The position numbers were made by a program, and so were the translations under genes. Below are positions 3,001 to 27,717 of a DNA stretch of 33,835 nucleotides, piece after piece. Origin of the DNA: Candidatus Niyogibacteria bacterium RIFCSPLOWO2_01_FULL_45_48. GTDB taxonomy: Bacteria > Patescibacteriota > Minisyncoccia > HO2-45-28. The stretch is taken from positions 1 to 33,835 of the forward strand of contig MHMQ01000015.1 in the NCBI GenBank assembly GCA_001819395.1. Reading direction: 5' to 3'. The number at the start of each line of letters is the position of its first letter. The stretch's first letter is position 1. The notes below the pieces were generated by a model. That model was not told the DNA's origin, searched no databases, and saw only the letters and a program-made list of their open reading frames with translations.

Positions 3001-3948
3001 GAGGATTAGGTTGTCTAGATCTTCTAAAAAATAAATTTTTGTATCAGTAATAATATCGGCTTTAATTTTTGCTAACTTGTGTTTATCTGTTCCCTGACTT
3101 AAAACGAACGTTGCGATGTCCCCGCTACTAAGTTTCTCTTCCATCACCAATCCATCTTGAGGAGAAGAATAGGTGGCATCCTTGTCAGGAGTTGTATCCT
3201 TACTAAAAAAATTATTATTTGAATATGTAGCCAGATTATCAAAATACTCATCCAGAGAATTTAAAATAACCGGCCTTTCTTTATCTAACTTTGAAACCAA
3301 ATCAATGTTTTGATCATCAAATTTTTTAGTCCATCCCTCATAAGGACTGGCCTGATTGAATAATTCATCAAAATAAGGCGGGTGCGGGTCGTTTCTGGTG
3401 TGGTCGGGAACGCTTGCGTCTTGTATTAGGTGCAAAACATGTCCAAGGGCCTCTAACCCCCTGTCTTTATCGCCCCAGGCATATTCGTAAATAGCCCGTT
3501 CCCAGGAAAAATCTATGTCCGAAGAAAAATAGTCCCGAACAGTTCCGGCGGTTAAAGAATCGATACTCGCCTGCATAATTGAGCTTCCTGCCCAGCTTTT
3601 TGAGCTTGAATATTCCAATTTGAAGTTTGCGGCAACTCCGGCAAGATTTCCTCCGCCACCAAAGTCGTCTCCAAAAAGAACAAGTCCGCGATTATAAATC
3701 GGGTCATAAAAGTGGTGAAGCGCGCGAACCCCGTCGTCCTCATTCACACTCCCTTGTTTCAATAAAATTTTTTCACCGCCGCCCAATGGACTGTTGTCAA
3801 AATAAGAATTAAAAAAAACAATTGTCTCGTCTGTTAAAGCCGAGTGTGTTGCGGTGCTATAAGCAAAAACAAAAAACGGTCCCAACAAAAAAATTGCGGC
3901 CGTGATTATTAAAGCCGCAATTTTATTTACATGTCTATTATTTTCCAT
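1..3948 (-). CDS. Giant secreted multidomain protein, N-terminal ~1315 aa (C-terminus lies beyond window start). Predicted N-terminal signal/TM anchor, zinc-dependent phospholipase C-like domain (approx 3420-3800), Pro/Ser/Gly-rich linker (approx 2450-2830), lamin-tail domain (approx 1580-1960), right-handed beta-helix repeats (approx 1-1460).
   Basis: Manual minus-strand translation from ATG 3946-3948 (MENNRHVNKIAALIITAAIFLLGPFF...) reads to position 1 without a stop. The ORF track omits it because no stop lies in the window. Motifs seen: LHHFYDP and LGHVLHLIQDASVPDHTRND (compare Bacillus PLC HFYDPDNG / LSLHYLGDVNQPMHAAN). VVINEIAWMGTASS...DEWIELYN fits LTD. Repeated NNTFQGF / GNIFNNN / SGNGLNGIVIGNS segments are typical of beta-helix. 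All + strand track ORFs in 317-2837 are short antisense artefacts. Confidence 0.7.
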   Translation of the reverse strand, partial: MENNRHVNKIAALIITAAIFLLGPFFVFAYSTATHSALTDETIVFFNSYFDNSPLGGGEKILLKQGSVNEDDGVRALHHFYDPIYNRGLVLFGDDFGGGGNLAGVAANFKLEYSSSKSWAGSSIMQASIDSLTAGTVRDYFSSDIDFSWERAIYEYAWGDKDRGLEALGHVLHLIQDASVPDHTRNDPHPPYFDELFNQASPYEGWTKKFDDQNIDLVSKLDKERPVILNSLDEYFDNLATYSNNNFFSKDTTPDKDATYSSPQDGLVMEEKLSSGDIATFVLSQGTDKHKLAKIKADIITDTKIYFLEDLDNLILTDYWSRLSKQAVLHGAGVIKLFFDEVEKEKETKVLYNKNRSWFQKAFDATKNTIFNVASVFYGSSVTLEDLDSPEDDLATPPPSGQAAAVVEIRSPEGEEGTESAEGEVVRGDEAILELVPEAVLPSEPDSGIRDRFGLVALPSGGGAIGGGGSPSASAQDTTPPAPPVVTTPADFSSAFKESTVTFSGTAEAGSVISQNITGDATTTSTTGVWSLELSLGQGSTTIQFFASDSSGNISAPLEITIFVDSIAPDLNFDIAECGNSLTAGCLSTSTTATLVWSSSAVDIAGYELGCSLAETVCAGFPKTFSATSSVQISEALNDYASYIFTLKIFDNTGNEAQVSKNIETASRPVVINEIAWMGTASSSVSLPADEWIELYNNTSQEINMNGWILRAEDNTPYVILAGPSIPAKGYYLLERTDDNTISDISTDQIYGNDGASWALNNSGERLFLERVFESATTTVDEVIKCNNWCGKGDNTSKQTMERIDPRVSGAETSNWGTAFGKWPEELVLLNGKSADGSAIKGTPKAKNSVTHLIARGNLSGDKTLTKENSPYVVPREGLNILAGVTLTINPGSVIKVIGSNDPRIIVGGTIKSNGEDDDPIVFTSFADDEYGDDTNKDGICNPQDASSTAACPVPGSWMQILVNSTSQNSSFINTIIRYGGAWSSNTDMRSMVAVDGASVTFDKVTIEYSKKHGLYLKNSSGAVSDSIFRYDRVKFPYYMEQPSSDSDAAGLLVGGGAPEINNNTFQGFRYGFSGSTAGASISGNIFNNNAVSAIQADNAVGYFSNNSGSGNGLNGIVIGNSYNISSVGATTTLGANPLPYIIKGEANVTGGSVLVFEPNVVVKGHNSNAGNTGRLVIKKDGKIYFDGSSPSDLIFTSTEDNSVGGNVFGTSTLPADGSWYGIEVKKGGVFAMRGFTLRYAGGLITQQSSIDKAGLRIEEGSGFMANAVFENNFRYGLGLQKVDFFSISSSVFRNHTQKETNVSAATAISVFKSNL

Positions 3949-4385
3949 ACACTATTCTGATTTTTACTCAACAGCACTTCGTATTTTATAACTCGATTTT
4001 CATCAGTTATAACAAACCACGCTTTGTCGTTATCTGTTTTTGATAAACTAAGATTTTGTATCCTCCCCATTACATCACCCAATCCACCATTATTTTGTAC
4101 CGTAGCAAGATCATTTTTCGTCTTCTCCCTCTCTTCAACCACAAAATATTTACTCGCAAGGTCAATATCCCCCGCTTTTAGGGCGTCAATAAATAACTGC
4201 AAAGTTTCTTCCGGTGTTTTTCCGCCGTAAGTATCTTCGGCATATTGTTTTTCAAGGTCGGCATAATAGCGAAGCGCCTTCTGCTCGGGACTATTGTAAT
4301 AGTTGAGATAATAAATAGAGCCAAACACCAAAACGATAATCAACGCGAACCCTGCCACAAACTTCAAAGACGTTCTGTTCACCAT
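3927..4385 (-). CDS. Hypothetical small membrane-anchored protein (152 aa, single N-terminal TM helix)
   Basis: Track ORF. Hydrophobic stretch FVAGFALIIVLVFGSIYYL followed by a soluble domain. Its start codon directly follows the stop of the upstream transposase gene. Confidence 0.55.
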   Translation of the reverse strand: MVNRTSLKFVAGFALIIVLVFGSIYYLNYYNSPEQKALRYYADLEKQYAEDTYGGKTPEETLQLFIDALKAGDIDLASKYFVVEEREKTKNDLATVQNNGGLGDVMGRIQNLSLSKTDNDKAWFVITDENRVIKYEVLLSKNQNSVWKIIDM

Positions 4386-4388
4386 ATT

Positions 4389-5090
4389 TTAATTTTTGAC
4401 AAGAGCCGTGCTCTTGTCAGCATTTGTCCAGTCTGTTAAAAATTTCCAATATTCTTCGCTGTTATTGTCAAAACACTCAATTACCGGCCCTTTTTCAATA
4501 ATCGGCGCAAATTCTTCTCTTGTTTCAAGATATTCCGGCAAACTTGACCATTTATAGTCTCTTAAAAACTTCTCTGCCCCCACCTTATCCTCAACATATC
4601 CCCGCTCTTTCCACATTGGATCAAAAATTTTAAGCGGATTTAGATGAATGTACCGGCTTGTGTGAGTATATTGTATATCATTTTCCACATGAACCGCTTT
4701 AAAGCGCCCGCTAAACAAAGGTCCGGAACGTTTATACTTAGTATTAAAATATAGCGCGTGGCTGGTTTCAAGGCGATGCATAAAGATGCTTATATTACTC
4801 TCTCCTAATTCTTTTACGAGCAGATGGAAATGGTTTGGCATTAAACACCACGCCAAAATTTCAACCAGTCGCTCTCCTTCTTTACTGTCTGTGTCAAGAG
4901 CCGTGCTCTTGCCATCCTTTCCAAGCACACGATCCATTCTAACTGGCCTACCGGAAGTATCGTTTAGATAAAACAGCAAAGCAATAAACCTGTGTCTATC
5001 AAAATCATTTTCAAATATAATCCTTTTTTCTACGCCTCTAGAAAAAATATGGTATATTTCTCCTTCCACAAACTCTATGCCACGAATCAT
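4389..5090 (-). CDS. REP-associated tyrosine transposase (RAYT, TnpA_REP; IS200/IS605 HuH Y1 transposase fold), 233 aa
   Basis: HuH motif LMPNHFHLLV. Catalytic Tyr in the RAYT-type context SRYIHLNPL. Flanked by inverted REP-like hairpins. Contains an internal REP-derived insertion (GKDGKSTALDTDS). The last 9 aa (DKSTALVKN) are encoded by a REP copy. Confidence 0.8.
   Translation of the reverse strand: MIRGIEFVEGEIYHIFSRGVEKRIIFENDFDRHRFIALLFYLNDTSGRPVRMDRVLGKDGKSTALDTDSKEGERLVEILAWCLMPNHFHLLVKELGESNISIFMHRLETSHALYFNTKYKRSGPLFSGRFKAVHVENDIQYTHTSRYIHLNPLKIFDPMWKERGYVEDKVGAEKFLRDYKWSSLPEYLETREEFAPIIEKGPVIECFDNNSEEYWKFLTDWTNADKSTALVKN
4397..4419. repeat. REP-like palindrome TGACAAGAGC-CGT-GCTCTTGTCA (copy 1, overlaps 3' end of RAYT CDS)
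   Basis: Perfect 10-bp arms and 3-nt loop read directly from the sequence. Confidence 0.85.
4892..4914. repeat. REP-like palindrome, copy 2 (TGTCAAGAGC-CGT-GCTCTTGCCA), internal to RAYT CDS
   Basis: Core CAAGAGCCGTGCTCTTG is identical to copy 1. It lies in-frame within the gene and encodes KSTAL. Confidence 0.8.
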
Positions 5091-5104
5091 TCTTTAAATA
5101 ATAT

Positions 5105-5137
5105 CACACTGACAAGAGCACGGCTCTTGTCAGTGTG
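5105..5137. repeat. REP-like palindrome, copy 3, extended 15-bp arms (CACACTGACAAGAGC-ACG-GCTCTTGTCAGTGTG), inverted relative to copies 1 and 2
   Basis: Perfect inverted repeat read from the sequence, immediately 5' of the RAYT start on the coding strand. Confidence 0.85.
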
Positions 5138-5154
5138 AATAACTTTATACTTAT

Positions 5155-5199
5155 ACAAGAGCCCCTGACAAGAGCACGGCTCTTGTCAGGGGCTCTTGT
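5155..5199. repeat. REP-like palindrome, copy 4, 21-bp arms (ACAAGAGCCCCTGACAAGAGC-ACG-GCTCTTGTCAGGGGCTCTTGT). Forms a tandem pair with copy 3.
   Basis: Perfect inverted repeat. The half-core CAAGAGC recurs inside the arms. Confidence 0.85.
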
Positions 5200-5213: not shown

Positions 5214-5900
5214 TCAAAGAGAATCGAAAAGGGTTTGAAGGTCGCCGGTGGTGTCGGCGCCAGAGGAAATACCCTGATCCAAAATTTCTTCGGCCTTGGC
5301 CGTATTTTGCAAAATATCGCGATAAAAATTGGCTGTTTGGAAGTAGGTATAGCCGTTTTTCGGTTCTGCCCCTATCGCCCGAAGAAAGCTTTCTTCCGCT
5401 TTTTTGTGATCCTTAATGTAAAAAGCATAAAGATCAGCCAGATTCAAAAAAGACGTTGCGTTATCGGGCCGTAAAACTCCGGCGAAATCCCACGCCTCAA
5501 TAGCCCCCTCGTAGTCGCCTATTTGTTTTCTTAAAATACCGAGCTGAAGCCAGCCCTGAAGATAGTCGGAATTTCCTTTCAGCGTTGACGAGATCTCCTG
5601 TATTTGCAAAACAAGTTCTTGACGAGTCTTTTCCGGTATGTTCAAACCGGCGCTAATTTTAATCGGCCTTGACAAATCAGGAATTTTTAACTCTATTTTC
5701 TCCACAACCATGCCCGAAACGTCCCCTTCTGCCTCAATACTAATCCCGTTCCCTACCTCAATTTCCTTTGAAACTTCGTTTGTGTTTTTTACAGACTCCT
5801 CATCCGGCCTTAAATCCCGCCAAATTAAAAATCCAGCGGCAACCAGCGCCAAAGCCAGGAAGTAAAAAACCAGCTTTTGTTTAATTAAATTCATAACCAT
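5214..5900 (-). CDS. Membrane-anchored TPR-repeat protein
   Basis: Track ORF 5214-5912 begins at a TTG. ATG at 5898-5900 (MVMNLIKQK) is the more likely start. N-terminal TM helix. TPR-like helical repeats (LGILRKQIGDYEGAIEAWDFA, LADLYAFYIKDHKKAEESFLRAI). Confidence 0.6.
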   Translation of the reverse strand: MVMNLIKQKLVFYFLALALVAAGFLIWRDLRPDEESVKNTNEVSKEIEVGNGISIEAEGDVSGMVVEKIELKIPDLSRPIKISAGLNIPEKTRQELVLQIQEISSTLKGNSDYLQGWLQLGILRKQIGDYEGAIEAWDFAGVLRPDNATSFLNLADLYAFYIKDHKKAEESFLRAIGAEPKNGYTYFQTANFYRDILQNTAKAEEILDQGISSGADTTGDLQTLFDSL

Positions 5901-5915
5901 TATTTTAAACAAAAG

Positions 5916-5941
5916 AAAAACCCCCGTAAAGGGGGTTTTTC
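5916..5941. terminator. Intrinsic terminator hairpin AAAAACCCCC-GTAAA-GGGGGTTTTT (U/A runs on both sides, bidirectional)
   Basis: GC stem with flanking A and T runs, between the stop of the 1240-aa gene and the TPR gene start. Confidence 0.75.
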
Positions 5942-5983
5942 TTGGCCGTTAGGCCATAGCCCTAACTAATCCACAAGGATTGA

Positions 5984-8900
5984 TTAGTAAGTGCTGTTGA
6001 AGTACTCGGAGTTCATCTGTGTAGCCGGAAGACCGATTACACCATAGCCGTTTGTCCAGTCAAAGTCATCAATTGAAGCCGCGGTTGATGTTGAGCGGGG
6101 CGACCAGATGAAGTCGTCGTTCGTCAACTCCGCGTCAGTAGTTGTTGCCTTGAACATGTTGCCGGCTGTGGCTGGTTCGTCGTTGTTCAGGAAGGTGACC
6201 GGGTATGCCGCGTCACCGAGAAGAGCGACACTGAAGGTATCCTGCACGCTAGCGGTGCTTTCAACGTTGGCCACGGTGGCCTTGAAGGCAAAGTACCTGG
6301 TAGCGCCGTCGGCAACAACATAGGTGGTTGTTGCGTTACAGCCGTAACCAATGGCACCCTTGTCAGGATAAATCTCAACAACTGACGGAGCGTCTGTCCT
6401 ATCCGAAAGCTTGGCAGTGCTGGTGTGGAAGTTGTTTCCGCCTATGCAGTTTGCGTAGTTAATCAAGCCGTCGGAAGTAAATGCGGAATCAACAAGCGAG
6501 AAGCCGGAATCCGTGTAGGCGTAGAGTCCGAAACTAGTTGTCGTTGCCACCTCTGAAGACGAGCTGATGGAAAAGGACAACTTGTAAATCGCAAGGTCTC
6601 CTCCGCTTGCCATAACACTGAAACGATACAAGGTTTTGTTCGCTTCGGTTGTTCCGTTGGTCAAGGAGTTGCTCGGAACGCTAAGTTTGGCGAATGTCGG
6701 GTAGGACTTGTTGACACGAATACCGGATGAAGATGTGTCGCTGGCGGAAGGACCAATGTTGGTTCCTGAAGCCAATCCGACTCCGAAAGTACCGCCGGTG
6801 TAAGTGGAACTGCGCTCGTTATCACCGTCATAGTCAACCGTCAGGAAGTTTCCTGAAGCGGTAATCGGTCCCGAATCGGTAATCGCGCCTATATCGCCCT
6901 TAACAATCATAACTTTGGATCCGGATCGCGGAACAACAAAGTTTGTGATGTCGGACGAAGTCGCGGTATCACCAGTCGGGAATCCGGCCGTGCCAACCAT
7001 ATTACCCGCAGTGTCCCACAAAGTAACTTGCGAGCTAATCAGGTCAGTCGGCGCGTTTGAAGCAAAGCGGGAAAGCTGAAGGGCGACTTTTCGAAGCTCA
7101 ATATCTTCGTTAGTCGCGCTAAAGCGAACTCTTAACAACTCAACGCCTGCGGAGCCTGCGGTTACAATCTTGTACCCCGGGCTTCCGGCATCAAGCGCGA
7201 CTGAAAGAGAACCTCCCGAAGCAACGGTCATGGTCTGACCCTGGCTGTCGGTAATGGTTTCTGCAACCGTCTGACCGCTGGTTAGTCCTGTAGCACCCGT
7301 AAAGGTTGTCTGCGCGCCGTCAAGTCCCCATGTGTGGGTTTCGCCAGATCCGGCGGAAGCCGAAACATCGCACTTGAACTGCAGGGTCTTTGCCGTTCCT
7401 TTTGGAACAGTGAGTCCCGAGCCGTCAAGGACGAAGTTGGTGCCGGACGCGAATGAACCCGGATTGACGACATTTGAAGCATTAACAATCGTTGTGCCGT
7501 CGTAGATCTTGCAGTTGGTAAGATCGGTGGCTGAAGATCCTCCTCCGCCGTTATTTTCAATCGGCAAGCTGGTTACGCGAATGTCTTCTCCCGAAGCTGT
7601 CGCGTCAAGAACAATGCTTGCCAAGTGGAATTGCGCCGCTCCCGCGATAACGGTCTGCGCCAACGGGAAAGATGAAACCGAGAAAGCCAAAGCGCCTGCT
7701 TTTATGGTCATCAAGCTCATCGTAATCGGTGAAGTCGGGCTTGGAGTAATCGTGGTGTTTGTGATCTGTCCTCTGACGGTTCCCCATCCGGAAGGCGTGG
7801 TGGAAGCCTGGAAGGTGTCGTCGTTATCCAAGTCTGTTCCAATTTTACCTTTCAAAATATAAGAGTGGACGCCGACCGGGAAAGTGATGGTGTCAGAGAA
7901 TTTAATCTCACCGGTTGCGATTCCTGCGGCACCCGAGGCATTGCCTTCAGCGGCAACACCATCAACTGGACCCGCGATAACCGCGCCGTTTTCGTCATAA
8001 AGCGAAACACTGGTGATGTCGTCAGCATCTTCACTCGATCCTTCGTTTTCAAGATGAACGTTGAAGTGCATCGCTGCGACCGAAATCGGTTCGCCCTTGA
8101 CATCAACTGTGAAAGCGCCCAATGGCTGGTTCGCAAGGTTTATAGCAACATTTTGAGCAGGGGCCAAAACATTGTTAACAGAAACTGTCATTGTGCCTTG
8201 CGAGATGGTTACTTGTGCCGCGTCGTAGTACGGGTCATCCGCGTTGTTGAAGTCCGCGCCGTCAGTTGCGGCGGCTGCAGCATCAAACGGCGGATTAAGG
8301 CCGTAGCCGTAAAGCGCGCCCTGGAAGGCCACATCCGTGGTCTTCTGAATGTCAAAGTCAACCGTTCTTAACGATCCTCCGATGATATCACCCTTAATGG
8401 TGATTTCTTTGGAGAATCCTTTGGCCATCAAGACGCCTTTTCCGCTGTTTTCAACAAACACCGCAGTGTAGTATTTGCCGTCAGCGCTCACTGTAGGAAC
8501 ATATTCGCTTCCGTTGGCGTAAACCTTGACATTTGTCAAGTCATCCTTGGAAGCAGAACCTGACTGGTACCACCTGACGTATTTAATGTATACGTCTTCG
8601 GCGGAACCGGACGTGAATTTAACAGACGAGAAAGTGTAGGTTTTTGTTCCGACTTCTTTTGTCTGTGATGAACCCGGGTCAAGCGCTCCTCGCGCGGGAC
8701 CGGGGATGGTGCCGATGGTCAATGTTTCGTTGATTGTGTGGCCAGCGCCGACAACCGGGAATGAGCCGTTAACCGCGGCATTCGCGGCGACCGATGCTAC
8801 CGAAAGATAGGCAATCTGTCCGCCATATCCTCCGCCCGATGTTTGGGCGTTTCCGCCGACAACCACTGTTTTGGTCTGTCCGGCCTTAACCACAAAGTCC

Positions 8901-9706
8901 TCGGTCAAAGCCGCCTGGTGAAGGGAATTCAAAGTTTTTGAAATTCCGATTTGCGTTCCCTGGTCATCCAGAAGAATGACTCCGGAGAACGAGGCGTCTT
9001 GGGCGAGACCCGTGCGCTCAACCGTGATTGAATCCACGGTCACGTCGCCGTCAGATGAAGCAGTAAGATTTACAACCGTAAACGGAACTCGCGTTGAGTT
9101 TACCGGGAACAAACTTGATACCGGCTGAACTCCAGCCGAAACCGTAAGTCCCGATCCAACTGGAGTAACAACTGGTACTGTTCCCCCGGTTGTTCCTCCC
9201 GTAGTGCCTCCGGTTGTTCCGCCGGCAACCATGTTGTACTTGGCTTTTGAAATAGAGCCGAAGTATCCGACTGCGGGCGAAACGGCATTAGCCGATTGCC
9301 ATGCCGAAACCGCTGATTGCGTTACAGAACCAAAGTATCCGGTGGCTCCTCCACTAAACGTGAAGTGGCCGGTTCCGATCAAGTAGTTCTGCAGGCATGT
9401 TACGTCATCACCCTTTGAACCCATTGTAAGGTCGCGAGTGAAGGCGCAAGCTCCGGCTGTTGCGGGCGCCGTGCCCGATGTCGCTTGGCCCCGAAGAGAC
9501 GCGTTAACATTGTTTATCGTCGCCTGATCGGTATTAAACGACTGCAAGAGCGAAAGAATCGACTGGATTTGCGCTTCGGTCAAAGCCGCGCTTGCGACCG
9601 GAACCAAAGCGGATCCCGCCAATAAAATCGCAGTTGACACAGAAACGATGGCTGCCGCCACTTTCCTGTGTTTTGCAATTAATTTACCCATATAATAATT
9701 TTTCAT
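5984..9706 (-). CDS. Large cell-surface protein (1240 aa): signal peptide, peptidoglycan-binding domain (PG_binding_1-like, approx 9235-9445), (GGTT)n linker, long Thr/Ser/Gly-rich beta-sandwich region
   Basis: Track ORF. N-terminus MKNYYMGKLIAKHRKVAAAIVSVSTAILLAGSALVPVASA fits a signal peptide. DDVTCLQNYLIGTGHFTFSGGATGYFGSVTQSAVSAWQ fits a PG-binding motif. Confidence 0.85.
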   Translation of the reverse strand: MKNYYMGKLIAKHRKVAAAIVSVSTAILLAGSALVPVASAALTEAQIQSILSLLQSFNTDQATINNVNASLRGQATSGTAPATAGACAFTRDLTMGSKGDDVTCLQNYLIGTGHFTFSGGATGYFGSVTQSAVSAWQSANAVSPAVGYFGSISKAKYNMVAGGTTGGTTGGTTGGTVPVVTPVGSGLTVSAGVQPVSSLFPVNSTRVPFTVVNLTASSDGDVTVDSITVERTGLAQDASFSGVILLDDQGTQIGISKTLNSLHQAALTEDFVVKAGQTKTVVVGGNAQTSGGGYGGQIAYLSVASVAANAAVNGSFPVVGAGHTINETLTIGTIPGPARGALDPGSSQTKEVGTKTYTFSSVKFTSGSAEDVYIKYVRWYQSGSASKDDLTNVKVYANGSEYVPTVSADGKYYTAVFVENSGKGVLMAKGFSKEITIKGDIIGGSLRTVDFDIQKTTDVAFQGALYGYGLNPPFDAAAAATDGADFNNADDPYYDAAQVTISQGTMTVSVNNVLAPAQNVAINLANQPLGAFTVDVKGEPISVAAMHFNVHLENEGSSEDADDITSVSLYDENGAVIAGPVDGVAAEGNASGAAGIATGEIKFSDTITFPVGVHSYILKGKIGTDLDNDDTFQASTTPSGWGTVRGQITNTTITPSPTSPITMSLMTIKAGALAFSVSSFPLAQTVIAGAAQFHLASIVLDATASGEDIRVTSLPIENNGGGGSSATDLTNCKIYDGTTIVNASNVVNPGSFASGTNFVLDGSGLTVPKGTAKTLQFKCDVSASAGSGETHTWGLDGAQTTFTGATGLTSGQTVAETITDSQGQTMTVASGGSLSVALDAGSPGYKIVTAGSAGVELLRVRFSATNEDIELRKVALQLSRFASNAPTDLISSQVTLWDTAGNMVGTAGFPTGDTATSSDITNFVVPRSGSKVMIVKGDIGAITDSGPITASGNFLTVDYDGDNERSSTYTGGTFGVGLASGTNIGPSASDTSSSGIRVNKSYPTFAKLSVPSNSLTNGTTEANKTLYRFSVMASGGDLAIYKLSFSISSSSEVATTTSFGLYAYTDSGFSLVDSAFTSDGLINYANCIGGNNFHTSTAKLSDRTDAPSVVEIYPDKGAIGYGCNATTTYVVADGATRYFAFKATVANVESTASVQDTFSVALLGDAAYPVTFLNNDEPATAGNMFKATTTDAELTNDDFIWSPRSTSTAASIDDFDWTNGYGVIGLPATQMNSEYFNSTY

Positions 9707-10190: not shown

Positions 10191-10916
10191 TTATGGCGCG
10201 GGGGCCAATTTATACCTCCTCCAGCGTTTTTCGCCTTCTTTTATAAGGAGACCTTCCGTTGCCATGCCGACCAGGTCCCTTTGGAGCGTTTTTCCGCTTA
10301 TCCGGCCCCTGAAAACATCCGCCAACTCGCCGATACTTACCCAGTCCTTTTCTTTTATAAAAGATATTATTTCACCGCGCCTCTCCCCGCCCCCCACGTT
10401 GTTGGCTAGAGCCGTGCTCTTGACAGTGGTTAGAACCGAGTTCTGACCACTTTCGTTTTCTTCGTTTTTGTCGTGAACTTGGTTCGAGACGTGTTGTCCG
10501 TTAAAGCCGTTAGATAGTTGTCCAATAGGCTCGTGTCCAATAAGACCGACAGCTGAAGGCTCGGGCAAAATATCGTATTTGCGTTCAGACAAGTAATCGG
10601 CCAGATTTAAATACTCCCTTTTTAGCACTTGGAAATTGGCCTCGGATATAAATGAGCCCGATGATGCCAACTCAAGTGTCCTTATGGACTGACGTATGTT
10701 TTCGGATATTATATCCAACCCCCTGACCCTTTCGTTGGGGGATGCGGTCTTAATTTTCAAAATAGATTCAAAAATTTCAAGTCCGTCCCGGCGCAAGAGC
10801 CACTTTAAGGGCTCCGAATCGGAAAATAAATCCGTCACGCGGTAAAGCGCCTCGGTCAATTTTTGCGAGCGTTCGTAAATATGTTCCAGATGGCCGTTGC
10901 CGTTATTTTCAGACAT
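10191..10916 (-). CDS. Hypothetical protein with C-terminal winged-helix DNA-binding domain (241 aa). Carries an in-frame REP-derived insertion.
   Basis: C-terminal ISFIKEKDWVSIGELADVFRGRISGKTLQRDLVGMATEGLLIKEGEKRWRRYKL is wHTH-like. The N-terminal domain was not recognised. Confidence 0.55.
   Translation of the reverse strand: MSENNGNGHLEHIYERSQKLTEALYRVTDLFSDSEPLKWLLRRDGLEIFESILKIKTASPNERVRGLDIISENIRQSIRTLELASSGSFISEANFQVLKREYLNLADYLSERKYDILPEPSAVGLIGHEPIGQLSNGFNGQHVSNQVHDKNEENESGQNSVLTTVKSTALANNVGGGERRGEIISFIKEKDWVSIGELADVFRGRISGKTLQRDLVGMATEGLLIKEGEKRWRRYKLAPAP
10407..10425. repeat. REP-like palindrome, copy 5 (TAGAGC-CGT-GCTCTTGACA), inside CDS 10191-10916, in-frame, encoding KSTAL
   Basis: Core AGAGCCGTGCTCTT is identical to the RAYT-flanking REPs. 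The host protein reads TTVKSTALANN. Confidence 0.75.
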
Positions 10917-14033: not shown

Positions 14034-15326
14034 CTAAGCCGCGCCGCTCATAAAGCTGGCCACGGGTTCGTCAATAAAAACGTCTTCCCGCCTGACGGGT
14101 TGGCGCAGAGTCAGTCCGCCAAGCGAAGTGCACCTGCTCAAAGCGACATACGCCTGTCCGGGAGCAAAAGCCCCTTTTCCAAGATCAATTACAACTTTAT
14201 CAAACGTCTGGCCCTGCGACTTGTGGATTGTTACAGCCCAAGCGAGCTTAAGCGGATACTGATAGTAAGAGCCCCTTACGACGCTTTCCATTTTTTTCAG
14301 TCTATCGTTGTAAGCGAACTCAACATTGTCCCAGCGGTGAGTGGTCAGAGTATGCGTTCCGCGCTTGGTAATTTCAACCTCTACGCCGATGTCTCCAAAT
14401 CCAACCACCGTGCCTATGTCGCCGTTCACCCATCTTCCCTGCGAATCGTTATTTAAGAGCATGACCTGCGCTCCTACTTTAAGAATCAGATTCTGGGCCG
14501 CCGGTATTCTGTGCGATGGAAAATTTCCGATGATAATTCCCTGTCGAGCTCTCGCCTCGCCTTTGAGCCGCGTGAGCTCTTCGGTGTTTATGCTTTCGGC
14601 AAGATTGTTTGTCGTTGTCAGATACACAACTCCTTTCAATGCCTTTCGGGAAATAGACGATTTTACGCGTTTATTGAGCATGGCTAAATCTTTTTCCGAA
14701 AATTCTCCCACCCTTATTTTATTTAAGACATCAATAAACTTTTTTTCGGTCTGGCGATAGACATTATTTAAAACAACTTGCTTGACACCGGCGTTTTTGA
14801 AAGATCGCGCCGAAAAAAAGTACGGGCTGTCGTAAAGTTTTGAAAACCACGATTTGTCTTTTTCTTCCAAAACAGGCGGAAGCTGGTAAAGATCACCCAT
14901 AAAAATCATCTGGACTCCGCCGAAAGGCGAATCGTTTTCCCGGCAGACGCGTAATCTGGCATCAACCGCATCTAAAAGATCGGCCCGCACCATTGAAATT
15001 TCATCGATGACGATCGTGTCAACGGATTTTATCAGTTCACCGCGCCGAGGATGACATCCTTCGGCCGCTTTTTCCGGCGTAATATCAATGCCGAAGCCGA
15101 AGAAAGAATGGAGTGTTTGTCCGCTTACATTTATAGCCGCGATTCCGGTGGAAGCCGTGACCGCCACGCTCTTTTTGGTATTCTGCCTGAAATGAGTCAG
15201 TAAAGTGGATTTTCCCGCACCCGCTCTGCCTGTCAGAAAAATAGATTCTCCGGTTTCTTCCATCAGCTTAAAAGCCGAGCTTTTTTCTTCATCCAGCCGA
15301 AACTGGGGCTTGTTCTTGTCCGACAC
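14034..15326 (-). CDS. Pif1-family 5'-3' DNA helicase (SF1B, RecD-like), 430 aa
   Basis: Walker A GRAGAGKST. Pif1 signature region MIFMGDLYQLPPV. Motif AVTIHKSQGQTFD. GTG start at 15324-15326 with GGAGGAAA five nt upstream. Confidence 0.85.
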   Translation of the reverse strand: MSDKNKPQFRLDEEKSSAFKLMEETGESIFLTGRAGAGKSTLLTHFRQNTKKSVAVTASTGIAAINVSGQTLHSFFGFGIDITPEKAAEGCHPRRGELIKSVDTIVIDEISMVRADLLDAVDARLRVCRENDSPFGGVQMIFMGDLYQLPPVLEEKDKSWFSKLYDSPYFFSARSFKNAGVKQVVLNNVYRQTEKKFIDVLNKIRVGEFSEKDLAMLNKRVKSSISRKALKGVVYLTTTNNLAESINTEELTRLKGEARARQGIIIGNFPSHRIPAAQNLILKVGAQVMLLNNDSQGRWVNGDIGTVVGFGDIGVEVEITKRGTHTLTTHRWDNVEFAYNDRLKKMESVVRGSYYQYPLKLAWAVTIHKSQGQTFDKVVIDLGKGAFAPGQAYVALSRCTSLGGLTLRQPVRREDVFIDEPVASFMSGAA

Positions 15327-15435: not shown

Positions 15436-15479
15436 AAATCCGACAAAATAAAAACGATCGTTTTTATTTTGTCGGATTT
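15436..15479. repeat. 44-bp perfect inverted repeat AAATCCGACAAAATAAAAACGATCGTTTTTATTTTGTCGGATTT (hairpin; possible bidirectional terminator and/or operator)
   Basis: Perfect 19-bp arms around the palindromic CGATCG centre. Sits between the stop of the PNPOx-like gene and the pif1 promoter. Confidence 0.8.
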
Positions 15480-15507: not shown

Positions 15508-15951
15508 TTATATTTTTACTCTGAAAAAGTGGCCGAAAATCTCTTGGTTTATGAAGTGGACCTCTGTTGGTTCTATTACATATATAGCATGGTCTGGAAA
15601 CTTGTCGGCCCAGCTGTATCTTTTTTTGTAAATTGCGTAATATTTTTTGTATTCGTTTTTCATGGGCCGTCTAGCGACGCCGGAGATTTGAAGACCTTTT
15701 ATTGAACCAAGTCCTCCCCAATTCTGATTTATGGTCAGGGCAACACGCGGATTTTTTAGAATATTTTTGCAATGCCTTGTGTCGGGCCGAGAGAAAAATA
15801 AAATGTTTAAATTTTTATCAAAAGCGAAAAACAAGGTTGAGGCCCACGGCCCGCCGTTTTTGCTTGATGTTGCCAAACTCATCAATTTATTTTCGGCCAA
15901 GTATTTCAAAACTTCACTCGCCAAAAAATTTTTGGTAAATTTTTTCGGCAT
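15508..15951 (-). CDS. Pyridoxamine 5'-phosphate oxidase-like FMN-binding split-barrel protein (general stress protein 26-like)
   Basis: 147 aa. Resembles the PNPOx-like family (LKYLAENKLMSLATSSKNGGPWASTLFFAFD). Confidence 0.6.
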   Translation of the reverse strand: MPKKFTKNFLASEVLKYLAENKLMSLATSSKNGGPWASTLFFAFDKNLNILFFSRPDTRHCKNILKNPRVALTINQNWGGLGSIKGLQISGVARRPMKNEYKKYYAIYKKRYSWADKFPDHAIYVIEPTEVHFINQEIFGHFFRVKI

Positions 15952-20969: not shown

Positions 20970-21953
20970 ATGTCCATAATCGAAGTTCATAATCTGTCGC
21001 GCACATATAAGTTTTACCGAAAAGAGCCCGGATTTGTCGGTTCGATGAAATCTTTTTTTGCGCGCAACATTGAGCACGCGCGGGCGGTTGACGGCATTTC
21101 ATTTTCCATGGAAGAGGGCGAGCTGGTCGGATTTCTCGGGCCGAATGGCGCTGGCAAAACAACGACCCTGAAAATGCTCACGGGGCTGATCGAGCCCACA
21201 AGCGGTACAGCATCCGTGCTGGGCCATATACCGCATCGCCGGGAGAAACAATACCAAAAACAGTTTTCGCTTGTAATGGGACAAAAAAATCAGCTTTGGG
21301 AAGACCTTCCGGCTTATGACGCGTTTTTGCTGAACAAAGCCATTTATGAACTGCCCGACAAAGAATTCAAAGACCAGTTTGAAGAGCTTGTCGAAGTTCT
21401 CGATGTCGGGAAAATTCTTAACGTGCAAACGCGCAAACTGTCATTGGGACAGCGCTTGAAATGCGAATTAATCGCGGCTCTCCTGCATAATCCGAAAGTG
21501 CTGTTTTTAGACGAGCCGACAATCGGACTTGACGTAGTGGCGCAAAAAAACATCCGGGAATTCATTAAAAAATATAATCGGGAACGGAACACGACCGTTC
21601 TTTTGACCTCGCACTACATGGAAGACATAAAAGAGCTTTGCGAGCGCATCATTATCATAAACAAGGGTAAAATTATCTACGACGGTTCCCTTGATAAGCT
21701 CGTTAAAAAATACGCGCCTCACAAACGACTCACGGTTACCTTCAATAAGGAAGGGGTTGGGCGAGAAATATTATCGCGTTTCGGAAAGCTCAAATATCTT
21801 GGTCCGCACAGGTCAATTATCAGCGTGCTCCGAAAAGACGCGCCTTCGGTTGCCGCCTCTTTGCTGTCCGCGGGTCTACCGGTGGATGACATTCTGATTG
21901 ACGAACCGGATGTGAATGAGGTCATACGGCACATTTTTGAAAAAGCATCCTGA
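20970..21953 (+). CDS. ABC transporter ATP-binding protein with ~100-aa C-terminal extension
   Basis: Walker A GPNGAGKTT. Signature LSLGQRLK. Walker B LFLDEPT. H-loop TSHYM. Confidence 0.85.
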   Translation: MSIIEVHNLSRTYKFYRKEPGFVGSMKSFFARNIEHARAVDGISFSMEEGELVGFLGPNGAGKTTTLKMLTGLIEPTSGTASVLGHIPHRREKQYQKQFSLVMGQKNQLWEDLPAYDAFLLNKAIYELPDKEFKDQFEELVEVLDVGKILNVQTRKLSLGQRLKCELIAALLHNPKVLFLDEPTIGLDVVAQKNIREFIKKYNRERNTTVLLTSHYMEDIKELCERIIIINKGKIIYDGSLDKLVKKYAPHKRLTVTFNKEGVGREILSRFGKLKYLGPHRSIISVLRKDAPSVAASLLSAGLPVDDILIDEPDVNEVIRHIFEKAS

Positions 21954-26952: not shown

Positions 26953-27717
26953 ATGATTCCCATTATAGAGGTCAAAAACCTTGTTAAGCGCTATAAAAAG
27001 GCGGATGAAAACGCGGTTGACGGCGTTTCGTTTTCGGTTGAGGAGGGCGAATTTTTCGCCTTTTTGGGCCCGAACGGCGCGGGTAAAACCACGACCATAT
27101 CGGTTCTCACAACCACGCTCTCAAAAACGGCCGGTGATGTGCGAATAGCCGGCTTTGATTTGGACAGGCACGAAAAAGAGGTCAGACAAAGAATAGGCGT
27201 CATTTTTCAAAACCACAGTCTGGACAAAAACCTTACCGCGGAAGAAAACATAAGATTTCACGCGAGCCTTTACGGCCTCCACTCGTTCCGGCCGTTTTAT
27301 TCGCTGATGTCCAAAGACTATAAAAAAAGACTTGCGGAGCTCGCCGATGTCGTGGGGCTCGGGCGCGACCTTTTCAAACCGATTAAATCGTACTCGGGCG
27401 GGATGAAAAGAAAACTGGAAATTGTTCGCGGACTTATGCATAATCCGCGGGTTTTATTTTTGGATGAGCCGACAACCGGACTTGATCCATTGAGCCGAAA
27501 AAACGTATGGAGCTATCTCCAGGATGTTCGCAAAAAAGACAAAACAACTATTTTTTTAACCACGCATTATTTGGAAGAGGCCGAGTCGGCCGATCACGTC
27601 TGCATAATCAATCACGGGCGCATAGTCGCTTACGGAACTCCGCGGGATATAAGCCATGAAAAGTCGCTTGAGGAAGCCTATTTAGAAATAATCACAAACG
27701 AGTATGCGAGAGCTTAA
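26953..27717 (+). CDS. ABC transporter ATP-binding protein (ABC-2/DrrA-like)
   Basis: Walker A GPNGAGKTT. Signature YSGGMKRK. Walker B LFLDEPTTG. H-loop TTHYL. Confidence 0.85.
   Translation: MIPIIEVKNLVKRYKKADENAVDGVSFSVEEGEFFAFLGPNGAGKTTTISVLTTTLSKTAGDVRIAGFDLDRHEKEVRQRIGVIFQNHSLDKNLTAEENIRFHASLYGLHSFRPFYSLMSKDYKKRLAELADVVGLGRDLFKPIKSYSGGMKRKLEIVRGLMHNPRVLFLDEPTTGLDPLSRKNVWSYLQDVRKKDKTTIFLTTHYLEEAESADHVCIINHGRIVAYGTPRDISHEKSLEEAYLEIITNEYARA

Follow-up and report, generated by a model that had tools for sequence, protein, structure and literature searches.

Y1 gene and palindromes in the window

We analyzed a stretch of 33,835 nucleotides (the window) from contig MHMQ01000015.1 of Candidatus Niyogibacteria bacterium RIFCSPLOWO2_01_FULL_45_48, a metagenome-assembled genome (MAG) whose identity bore out an earlier guess, made from the letters alone, that the DNA came from the candidate phyla radiation (CPR). 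Our subject was a single Y1 HUH tyrosine transposase-like gene (the Y1 gene) and a family of short palindromes within and around it. A preliminary description had read this locus as an intact, apparently active REP-associated tyrosine transposase (RAYT) gene between inverted repetitive extragenic palindromes (REPs), a REPtron-like unit that would be unusual in CPR. The gene, its catalytic motifs, and the palindromes (unstranded) were located as follows.

4389–5090, minus strand: Y1 HUH tyrosine transposase-like gene, intact open reading frame (ORF) of 233 aa, fitting the RAYT / TIRYT subclass-2.1 type
4824–4832, minus strand: HuH motif codons, H87-F88-H89 in PNHFHLL, placed by translation and alignment
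4650–4652, minus strand: codon of catalytic Tyr147 in YIHLNP (class-2 'Y---NP' motif), placed by translation and the motif table of PMC6006769
5104–5138: UP1, upstream palindrome, 16-bp perfect stem, 3-nt loop
5155–5199: UP2, nested palindrome, 21-bp perfect stem
4895–4911: IN, copy within the coding sequence (CDS), 7-bp stem, family register 4891–4915
4397–4419: END, copy over the last codons (D-K-S-T-A-L-V), 10-bp stem
10402–10426: decayed dispersed copy in the HTH_DeoR gene, 5 bp of stem left

Y1 protein. The gene was intact where the preliminary description had placed it, with its HuH (HFHLL) and YIHLNP motifs. Residues H87, H89, and Y147 were invariant in a 25-sequence alignment. The AlphaFold2 model had a predicted local distance difference test (pLDDT) score of 87.7 overall, and low confidence was limited to residues 51–70 (pLDDT 57) and 221–233, exactly the segments encoded by the two palindromes in the gene. 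A Foldseek search of the PDB returned 4ER8 first, the E. coli TnpA_REP with bound REP hairpin (E = 4.9e-7), followed by IS608 TnpA and ISDra2 TnpA (fold matches 2A6O and 2XMA), while the profile match to 4ER8 at the sequence level was marginal (E = 0.015). As modeled, the protein has a Y1 fold with an intact HuH/Tyr active site. The profile check proposed at the outset gave a divided answer: Pfam Y1_Tnp (PF01797) matched above its cut-off (38.3 bits vs 23, E = 1.7e-9), but the best NCBIfam model, REP_Tyr_transpos (NF047646), scored 47 bits, short of its cut-off of 80, with an alignment limited to profile positions 43–133 and the part of the protein after residue 72. Pfam and NCBIfam found nothing beyond the core and no distal C-terminal helix-turn-helix (HTH; DnaA_C-like) domain in the window protein. 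NCBIfam IS200 models did not match it at E ≤ 1, PADLOC returned nothing for it, and the one PHROGs match, to a family without assigned function, was marginal (E = 0.006). A strain variant on an ENA contig of 1855 bp (P0004), with a 97% identical Y1 gene, was called from Met84 onward only; MKNNFNLL replaced MPNHFHLL, changing both HuH histidines to asparagine, and YIHLNT replaced YIHLNP. From these substitutions it is probably an inactivated allele or pseudogene.

Palindromes. The palindrome CTGACAAGAGC-ACG-GCTCTTGTCAG had five copies in the window, of which two were upstream of the Y1 gene, one was in its CDS, one lay over its 3′ end, and one, decayed, was in another gene, so that three of the five were within genes. 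Its AAGAGCNNNGCTCTT core, allowing ≤1 mismatch, matched five times against an expectation of 0.09, and none of 100 shuffles reached five. One copy over the 3′ end and two larger upstream palindromes in the opposite orientation had been described before, and stems of 10, 16, and 21 bp with inverted loops agreed with that account. The CDS copy at 4895–4911, the decayed copy at 10402–10426, and the nested structure at 5155–5199 had been missed.

UP1 ended 14 nt before the ATG and was followed by a T-rich run on the gene strand; its DNA hairpin folded at −18.2 kcal/mol (z = −10.1) and it scored as terminator-like on the minus (gene) strand. The outer arms of UP2, ACAAGAGC/GCTCTTGT, surrounded CCC-[full palindrome]-GGG, a REP stem enclosing a complete REP (−26.5 kcal/mol, z = −12). 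IN was in frame, encoded G-K-S-T-A-L-D (residues about 59–65) in the α1-β2 loop, was inverted relative to UP1 and UP2, and folded at −8.1 kcal/mol. END (−9.7 kcal/mol) preceded the next gene, 11–35 nt ahead of its start codon. Against shuffled sequence, the four DNA hairpins UP1, UP2, END, and IN had z-scores of −5 to −12. The copy at 10402–10426 was in frame in a variable linker of the HTH_DeoR gene, where it encoded V-K-S-T-A-L-A, and its DNA fold was not significant. The loop on the plus strand read CGT in END and ACG in UP1 and UP2, and END was therefore inverted relative to the upstream copies, with which it shared a 24-nt perfect inverted match. The palindromes thus flanked the gene on both sides in inverted orientation, as in a REPtron. 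Rfam gave only sub-threshold matches to generic hairpins (miRNA precursors). We rejected the idea that the palindrome provides a −35 hexamer (TTGTCA or TTGACA): at 4 against 2.4 expected from shuffling, promoter-like matches were not in excess, and the hexamer was absent from the palindromes of other species.

Three-site layout in related loci

We oriented ten loci by their Y1 genes (the window, L045, L048, L055, L056, L057, L058, L060, L061, and L062) and listed every local palindrome copy. Upstream, internal, and 3′ copies occurred together in 8–9 of the ten, down to 39% protein identity. The upstream palindrome lay 27–113 nt before the ATG, with the nearest copy at 27–44 nt in most loci, and the 3′ copy was at or just past the gene end (+646 to +744). 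The internal copy was found at CDS nucleotides +156 to +194, in the α1-β2 loop between helix α1 and the HuH strand, and was species-specific (9/10 loci). This conserved copy inside the coding sequence is the most distinctive feature of the system. The same three places were occupied by palindromes whose sequence differed between species:

Window: CAAGAGC-ACG-GCTCTTG
L045: C(A/C)GAAC-TCG-GTTC(T/G)G
L048: AAGAGC-TTA-GCTCTT
L055: GGACAGC-ACTCCGA-GCTGTCC
L056: CGGATACC-A-GGTATCCG
L057: GAAGTC-C-GACTTC
L058: CCAAGG-TCTGG-CCTTGG
L061: ACGAGGTT-C-AACCTCGT

Two loci departed from this layout. In L062 the internal copy corresponded to a palindrome ~400 nt upstream and not to the different palindrome nearest the gene, and L060, from Omnitrophota, had upstream doublets only. 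Recurrence of the upstream palindrome within the gene's own CDS was seen in 8/10 Y1 genes vs 1/121 other ORFs of the same loci (Fisher p = 2e-10), and the single exception was the gene adjoining the Y1 gene in L045, which carried the same palindrome family. The nearest upstream copy of the same type was inverted relative to the internal copy at all seven informative loci (two-sided binomial p = 0.016).

Stem and loop were common to all copies within one genome. Even the window and L048, which shared a stem, had different loops (ACG vs TTA), each uniform within its genome. Since the copies were uniform within a genome yet differed between species, those within each genome evolve in concert. The peptides encoded by the internal copies were unrelated (KSTAL, NSVPT, QHSELS, VGYLV, EVGLQ, EVQPR, and others), and from these sequences the conserved item in the α1-β2 loop is a nucleic-acid hairpin and not a peptide. 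Its position shifted by about ±20 nt within the loop. When 113 homologues were scanned for a peptide shared between loop and tail, as KSTAL is in the window protein, a long one (GQHSELS) appeared only in P0007 and P0009, and three further matches of four residues were chance-like. The frames of the copies usually differ, making a protein-level search inadequate and DNA necessary.

Gene neighborhood and inheritance

Three neighboring genes of the window enter into the comparisons below:

3927–4385, minus strand: downstream gene of 152 aa, starting 3 nt after the Y1 stop, syntenic in five species
5214–5912, minus strand: upstream TPR gene, syntenic in Niyogibacteria loci
10191–10916, minus strand: gene with an HTH_DeoR match, ~5.3 kb from the Y1 gene

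The order TPR gene, Y1 gene, small gene, and giant LTD-domain gene was kept in five Niyogibacteria species, across which Y1 identity was 55–67% and the neighboring genes had diverged similarly. UP1 and UP2 lay in the 123-nt spacer between the TPR gene and the Y1 gene, and the 152-aa downstream gene had no Pfam match. Searches with tblastn gave one Y1 match per locus, and the locus contained no tnpB and no insertion sequence (IS) structure. At the level of the locus, the gene had the attributes of a domesticated RAYT: single copy, vertical inheritance, no IS, and no tnpB.

The same observations bear on whether this could be an ordinary, currently mobile IS200/IS605 element with terminal hairpins. 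A Y1_Tnp domain and a hairpin at either end would be expected of such an element too, and the direct orientation of the upstream and 3′ copies in L056–L058 was IS-like. However, the tyrosine motif was Y---NP and not Y[IV]ENQ, no NCBIfam IS200 model matched, tnpB was missing, and there was one copy per locus. Synteny refuted the idea, as the gene held the same operon position in five species at 55–67% identity, with its own hairpin in each, and we consider a mobile element extremely improbable. An ordinary IS200 TnpA on a complete IS with tnpB was also one of the findings that the preliminary description had named as fatal to its reading; motif, synteny, and the lack of tnpB ruled it out.

We also weighed whether the palindromes are ordinary terminators, or sites of another protein such as the HTH_DeoR regulator, unrelated to the Y1 enzyme. 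UP1 resembles an intrinsic terminator, and the HTH gene carries or follows a local palindrome in the window, L045, and L056. But copies also lay within coding sequence and without T-runs, the pattern was seen in just one of the 121 control ORFs, and the link to the Y1 gene held without the Niyogibacteria neighborhood, there being no HTH-sized ORF in L057, L058, or L061. The HTH domain was nearly identical in the four species compared, while their palindromes were unrelated, and we rejected the HTH_DeoR protein as the factor setting palindrome specificity because a near-invariant HTH accompanied wholly different palindromes. Altogether we hold this explanation to be very improbable. Local palindromes did occur 45–66 nt upstream of the likely start of the HTH_DeoR orthologue in L045 (4055–4095) and L056 (4210–4234), making three of four species with the window.

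Strain comparisons. An identical Y1 protein was encoded on MHMR01000007.1 (GCA_001819415.1) and on several ENA metagenome contigs. In one strain (L005, 99.8% identical) a single nucleotide polymorphism (SNP) at window position 5122 changed the UP1 3-nt loop from ACG to ACT with the stem intact; within 9.3 kb it was the sole SNP outside the giant surface-protein gene. Strain SNPs were otherwise clustered at window positions 7263–8640, in the 1240-aa gene (5984–9706), and 2452–2827, and their clustering suggests that these segments diversify or recombine in genomes that are identical elsewhere.

Family, distribution, and classification

The expectation that such a gene would be unusual in CPR was contradicted by its distribution. 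Among 1.84 billion cluster representatives, a search by profile returned 1,820 clusters (50% identity) at E ≤ 1e-30. There were ~3,000 close homologues of ~230 aa, and the few named by source were almost all CPR (Parcubacteria-type), plus Omnitrophota, with Candidatus Niyogibacteria the closest. By these searches the gene family is common and typical in CPR genomes. A search of viral contigs for relatives found one distant homologue only.

TnpA-Y1 class 2 has the tyrosine motif Y---NP, compared with Y---Q / Y[IV]ENQ in IS200, and the signature of subclass 2.1 is NH[YF]H, FQ (W motif), Y[IV]HLNP, a proximal SS tail, and a median length of 238 aa (PMC6006769). YIHLNP in the window protein has the Y---NP form of the RAYT / TnpA_REP class 2. 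The protein also had NHFH, FS where most homologues had FQ, an invariant W-S-S, and a length of 233 aa. On motifs, not phylogeny, it fits subclass 2.1 (TIRYT, RAYT Group 1). It shared 28–30% identity (E 1e-16 to 1e-19) with classical 2.1 genes from a Legionella plasmid and an FCPU426 MAG, and was closer to these than to 4ER8. Scores against NF047646 were 79–94 bits for classical 2.1 genes and 29–47 for the CPR clade (29–42 for the CPR relatives). The FCPU426 MAG (L012) had two near-identical classical 2.1 Y1 genes of 317 aa (204–1157 and 3775–4728) with a DnaA-like C-terminal HTH.

Copy number and dispersal

Across 47.7 kb of the source genome, four palindrome copies were at the Y1 gene and one, decayed, lay 5.3 kb off; there was none in the 5.6 kb before the window start or the 8.3 kb past its end. 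Relatives differed in how far their palindromes had spread. In L061, four copies lay apart from the Y1 gene; a duplicated segment held two of these, and the other two had unique flanks. L060 had two distant inverted doublets, and L045 had three further doublets, of which one was in frame within the adjacent TPR gene. Inverted doublets resembling REPINs were found in L045, L048, and L060.

Exact matches to the window palindrome were also found in other organisms. Scanning genome contigs, which did not include the source genome, with the 17-mer CAAGAGCACGGCTCTTG gave 38 single matches in non-CPR phyla. Most are probably chance; the exception was a pair from one FCPU426 MAG, where a 45-nt repeat on two contigs (L012 1802–1816; L016 290–304) holds the exact 17-mer core of the window. 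A 19-mer scan of metagenomes, again without the source genome, found four loci in other organisms. These metagenomic organisms had a GC of 0.49–0.50, and two showed clustered intergenic copies. L054 had three copies within 240 bp (3572–3809) downstream of a UvrD-like gene, and another organism had two copies ~2 kb apart (L051 3041–3059 and 5093–5111; L052 3939–3957 and 5991–6009). No Y1 gene was near the copies in L051, L052, or L054 within the stretches fetched. More than one palindrome family was present in some CPR loci (L061 12957–12975; L062 9348–9380 and 11846–11881), for example GGAAGTC-C-GACTTCC beside the Y1-associated ACGAGGTT family, so that a single genome may harbor several families of hairpins.

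Interpretation of the hairpins

We think that the locus is probably a domesticated, vertically inherited Y1 HUH gene with its cognate hairpins: a CPR-specific form of a REPtron/TIRtron-like unit, within the subclass-2.1 lineage. REP is bound by E. coli TnpA_REP, and IS608 TnpA recognizes the hairpins at the ends of its element. By analogy, the CPR enzyme would bind single-stranded DNA at its hairpins and cleave and rejoin the strand at these sites, so copying and homogenizing the hairpins, which would explain both their concerted evolution and their occasional spread. If it acted mainly in cis, copies would accumulate on and beside its own gene, and purging of harmful insertions would leave copies in the CDS only in two permissive, disordered segments; cis preference and purging together would account for the clustering on the gene and the restriction to those segments. 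Left-end hairpins of IS200 throttle expression, and the strong upstream hairpins here (UP1 with its T-run) probably do the same to the Y1 gene within its operon.

Several results weigh against this interpretation. The window protein is below the NCBIfam RAYT cut-off and, by that measure, is not an equivalog of the classical RAYT. For classical RAYTs the 5′ hairpin foot has to carry a GT[AG]G guide tag, and no consistent GTAG or GTGG occurred in the flanks of the five window copies. The palindrome is low-copy in the source genome, with five in 47.7 kb and the fifth decayed, and L055 and L057 had just the three gene-borne copies in 12–20 kb, so that a mobile palindrome 'population' may hardly exist. 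Six strain contigs, 99.8–100% identical, showed no gain or loss of a palindrome and no indel at any copy; the description of the unit as apparently active had no direct support. Simple cis-insertion into permissive sites does not predict the rule of inversion at 7/7 loci, and the ±20 nt shift of the internal copy is compatible with repeated insertion or with one ancient insertion. Of the original REPtron-like reading, then, the flanking architecture, the RAYT-class gene, and the lack of tnpB stood, but classical RAYT membership and the status of the palindrome as a high-copy REP were not shown.

The loci with three copies only and the rule of inversion favor another explanation, in which the hairpins are chiefly cis-acting sites of the Y1 gene itself and not a mobile family, the main substrate of the enzyme is its own locus, and the few dispersed copies are by-products. 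Between the upstream and internal copies, over a distance of ~220 bp, lie the ribosome-binding site and the first ~55 codons, and the two copies could serve as operator or attenuator in autoregulation, or mark the ends of a segment for self-catalyzed excision, inversion, or nicking. The three-site layout is the conserved core of the system (three copies only in L055/L057, 4/5 window copies at the gene), the nearest upstream copy in most loci precedes the ATG by 27–44 nt and, wherever this could be judged, has the opposite orientation to the internal copy, and the unrelated peptides in the disordered loop imply selection on nucleic acid and not protein. Other HUH enzymes nick inside or beside their own gene (phiX174 gene A, pT181 repC). 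Yet none of the six strain contigs was rearranged or inverted. L061, L060, and L045 had dispersed copies between unique flanks, L060 had no internal copy, and in L062 the internal copy was unlike the nearest upstream palindrome. Y1 transposases are not known to invert DNA. We rate this explanation as possible but unlikely. Less likely again is its most specific form, in which the three co-evolving hairpin sites make up a self-directed HUH device, the enzyme nicking, excising, or inverting the ~220-bp segment or binding it for self-repression. If true, a single-strand DNA transposase would here have given rise to a novel type of genetic switch or autoregulatory circuit, one widespread in CPR.

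To the question of what domesticated transposases of the RAYT type do for their hosts, the domesticated gene with cognate hairpins that we favor adds a large CPR branch in which the hairpin sits at three fixed places of its own gene. Some of these genomes appear to hold three to five hairpins only, offering a minimal system for recognition, concerted evolution, and possible self-regulation. For annotation, genes labeled 'transposase' in thousands of CPR MAGs behave as stable, syntenic chromosomal genes.

Comparison with known systems

TIRYT / TIRtron. The TIRYT genes and 'TIRtron' of Di Nocera et al. (2013, PMC3733652) are subclass 2.1 of Quentin et al. (2018, PMC6006769) and RAYT Group 1 of Bertels et al. 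(2017, PMC5581495). They have flanking inverted repeats, some self-complementary and moderately repeated (PMC3733652), and no REP-like sequences were reported near subclass 2.1 genes by Quentin et al. (PMC6006769). A subclass reported to lack associated palindromes here shows them, including inside the reading frame. The window resembled this type in length class (~238 aa), motifs, low copy number, lack of tnpB, flanking inverted repeats with one over the 3′ end (likewise in a Legionella homologue, L065), and best pairwise similarity among characterized types. Unlike the window protein and the other CPR proteins, classical 2.1 members have the distal DnaA-C-like HTH (seen in L012 as a C-terminal TIGR00362 match), and TIRYT terminal inverted repeats (TIRs) are mostly non-palindromic with a GGGGWSAS motif, whereas the window has perfect self-complementary hairpins. 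Neither the GGGGWSAS motif nor a non-palindromic TIR was found in the window flanks, although a TIR was present in the Legionella homologue. L065, the sole classical 2.1 locus checked, had no internal copy and a short α1-β2 loop, and a related Collinsella homologue (L066) also had no internal copy.

REPtron / REPIN-RAYT. Classical systems (E. coli TnpA_REP; Pseudomonas Group 2/3) share with the window a single-copy, vertically inherited Y1 gene, inverted species-specific palindromes, and co-evolution of gene and palindrome; 4ER8 was the best structural match, and REPIN-like doublets were seen in relatives of the window. The GTAG/GTGG tag of the classical systems was missing here, and their tens to hundreds of genome-wide copies contrast with five in 47.7 kb.

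Subclass 2.4. RAYT Group 4 (PMC6006769) also has the cognate palindrome in frame in its own gene, in a peripheral variable region, and in the flanks. It differs in motifs (NH[IFV]H, WQ, YIxNNP), in REPs that are GTAG-tagged or 'double-foot', and in its hosts, Cyanobacteria and Bacteroidetes (PMC6006769).

IS200/IS605. The TnpA proteins of IS608 and ISDra2 have the same Y1 HUH fold and recognize hairpins at the element ends, but the elements move and occur in multiple copies, often together with tnpB; they carry Y---Q and imperfect sub-terminal hairpins and lack conserved synteny.

Rickettsia palindromic elements (RPE) and intragenic REPs. These are likewise in-frame palindromes at surface or linker positions that leave the protein intact. 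RPE are 100–150 bp with no known cognate transposase, whereas the palindromes here are ~25 nt and tied to the Y1 gene.

In the literature library searched, no paper described RAYTs or REPs in CPR. What is new is the clade, CPR, along with terminal repeats that are hairpins and carry no GTAG tag, a distal HTH that has been lost, and a conserved palindrome copy on the N-terminal side of the HuH motif.

Additional features of the window

Three observations concerned other parts of the window. A hairpin of G/C runs between A and T runs (AAGAAAAACCCCC...GGGGGTTTTTCTT) lay at 5913–5943, after the 1240-aa gene; its sequence suggests a terminator working in both directions, and every orthologous Niyogibacteria locus had an equivalent hairpin in this position. 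Between ORFs at 14034–15326 and 15508–15951, both on the minus strand, lay an AT-rich perfect palindrome of 44 nt (15436–15479; 22-bp stem, no loop), whose sequence was unrelated to the Y1-associated family. Paralogous ABC-transporter ATPase genes ~5.9 kb apart were 75–77% identical in DNA over 21084–21167 / 27013–27096 and 21484–21551 / 27437–27504.

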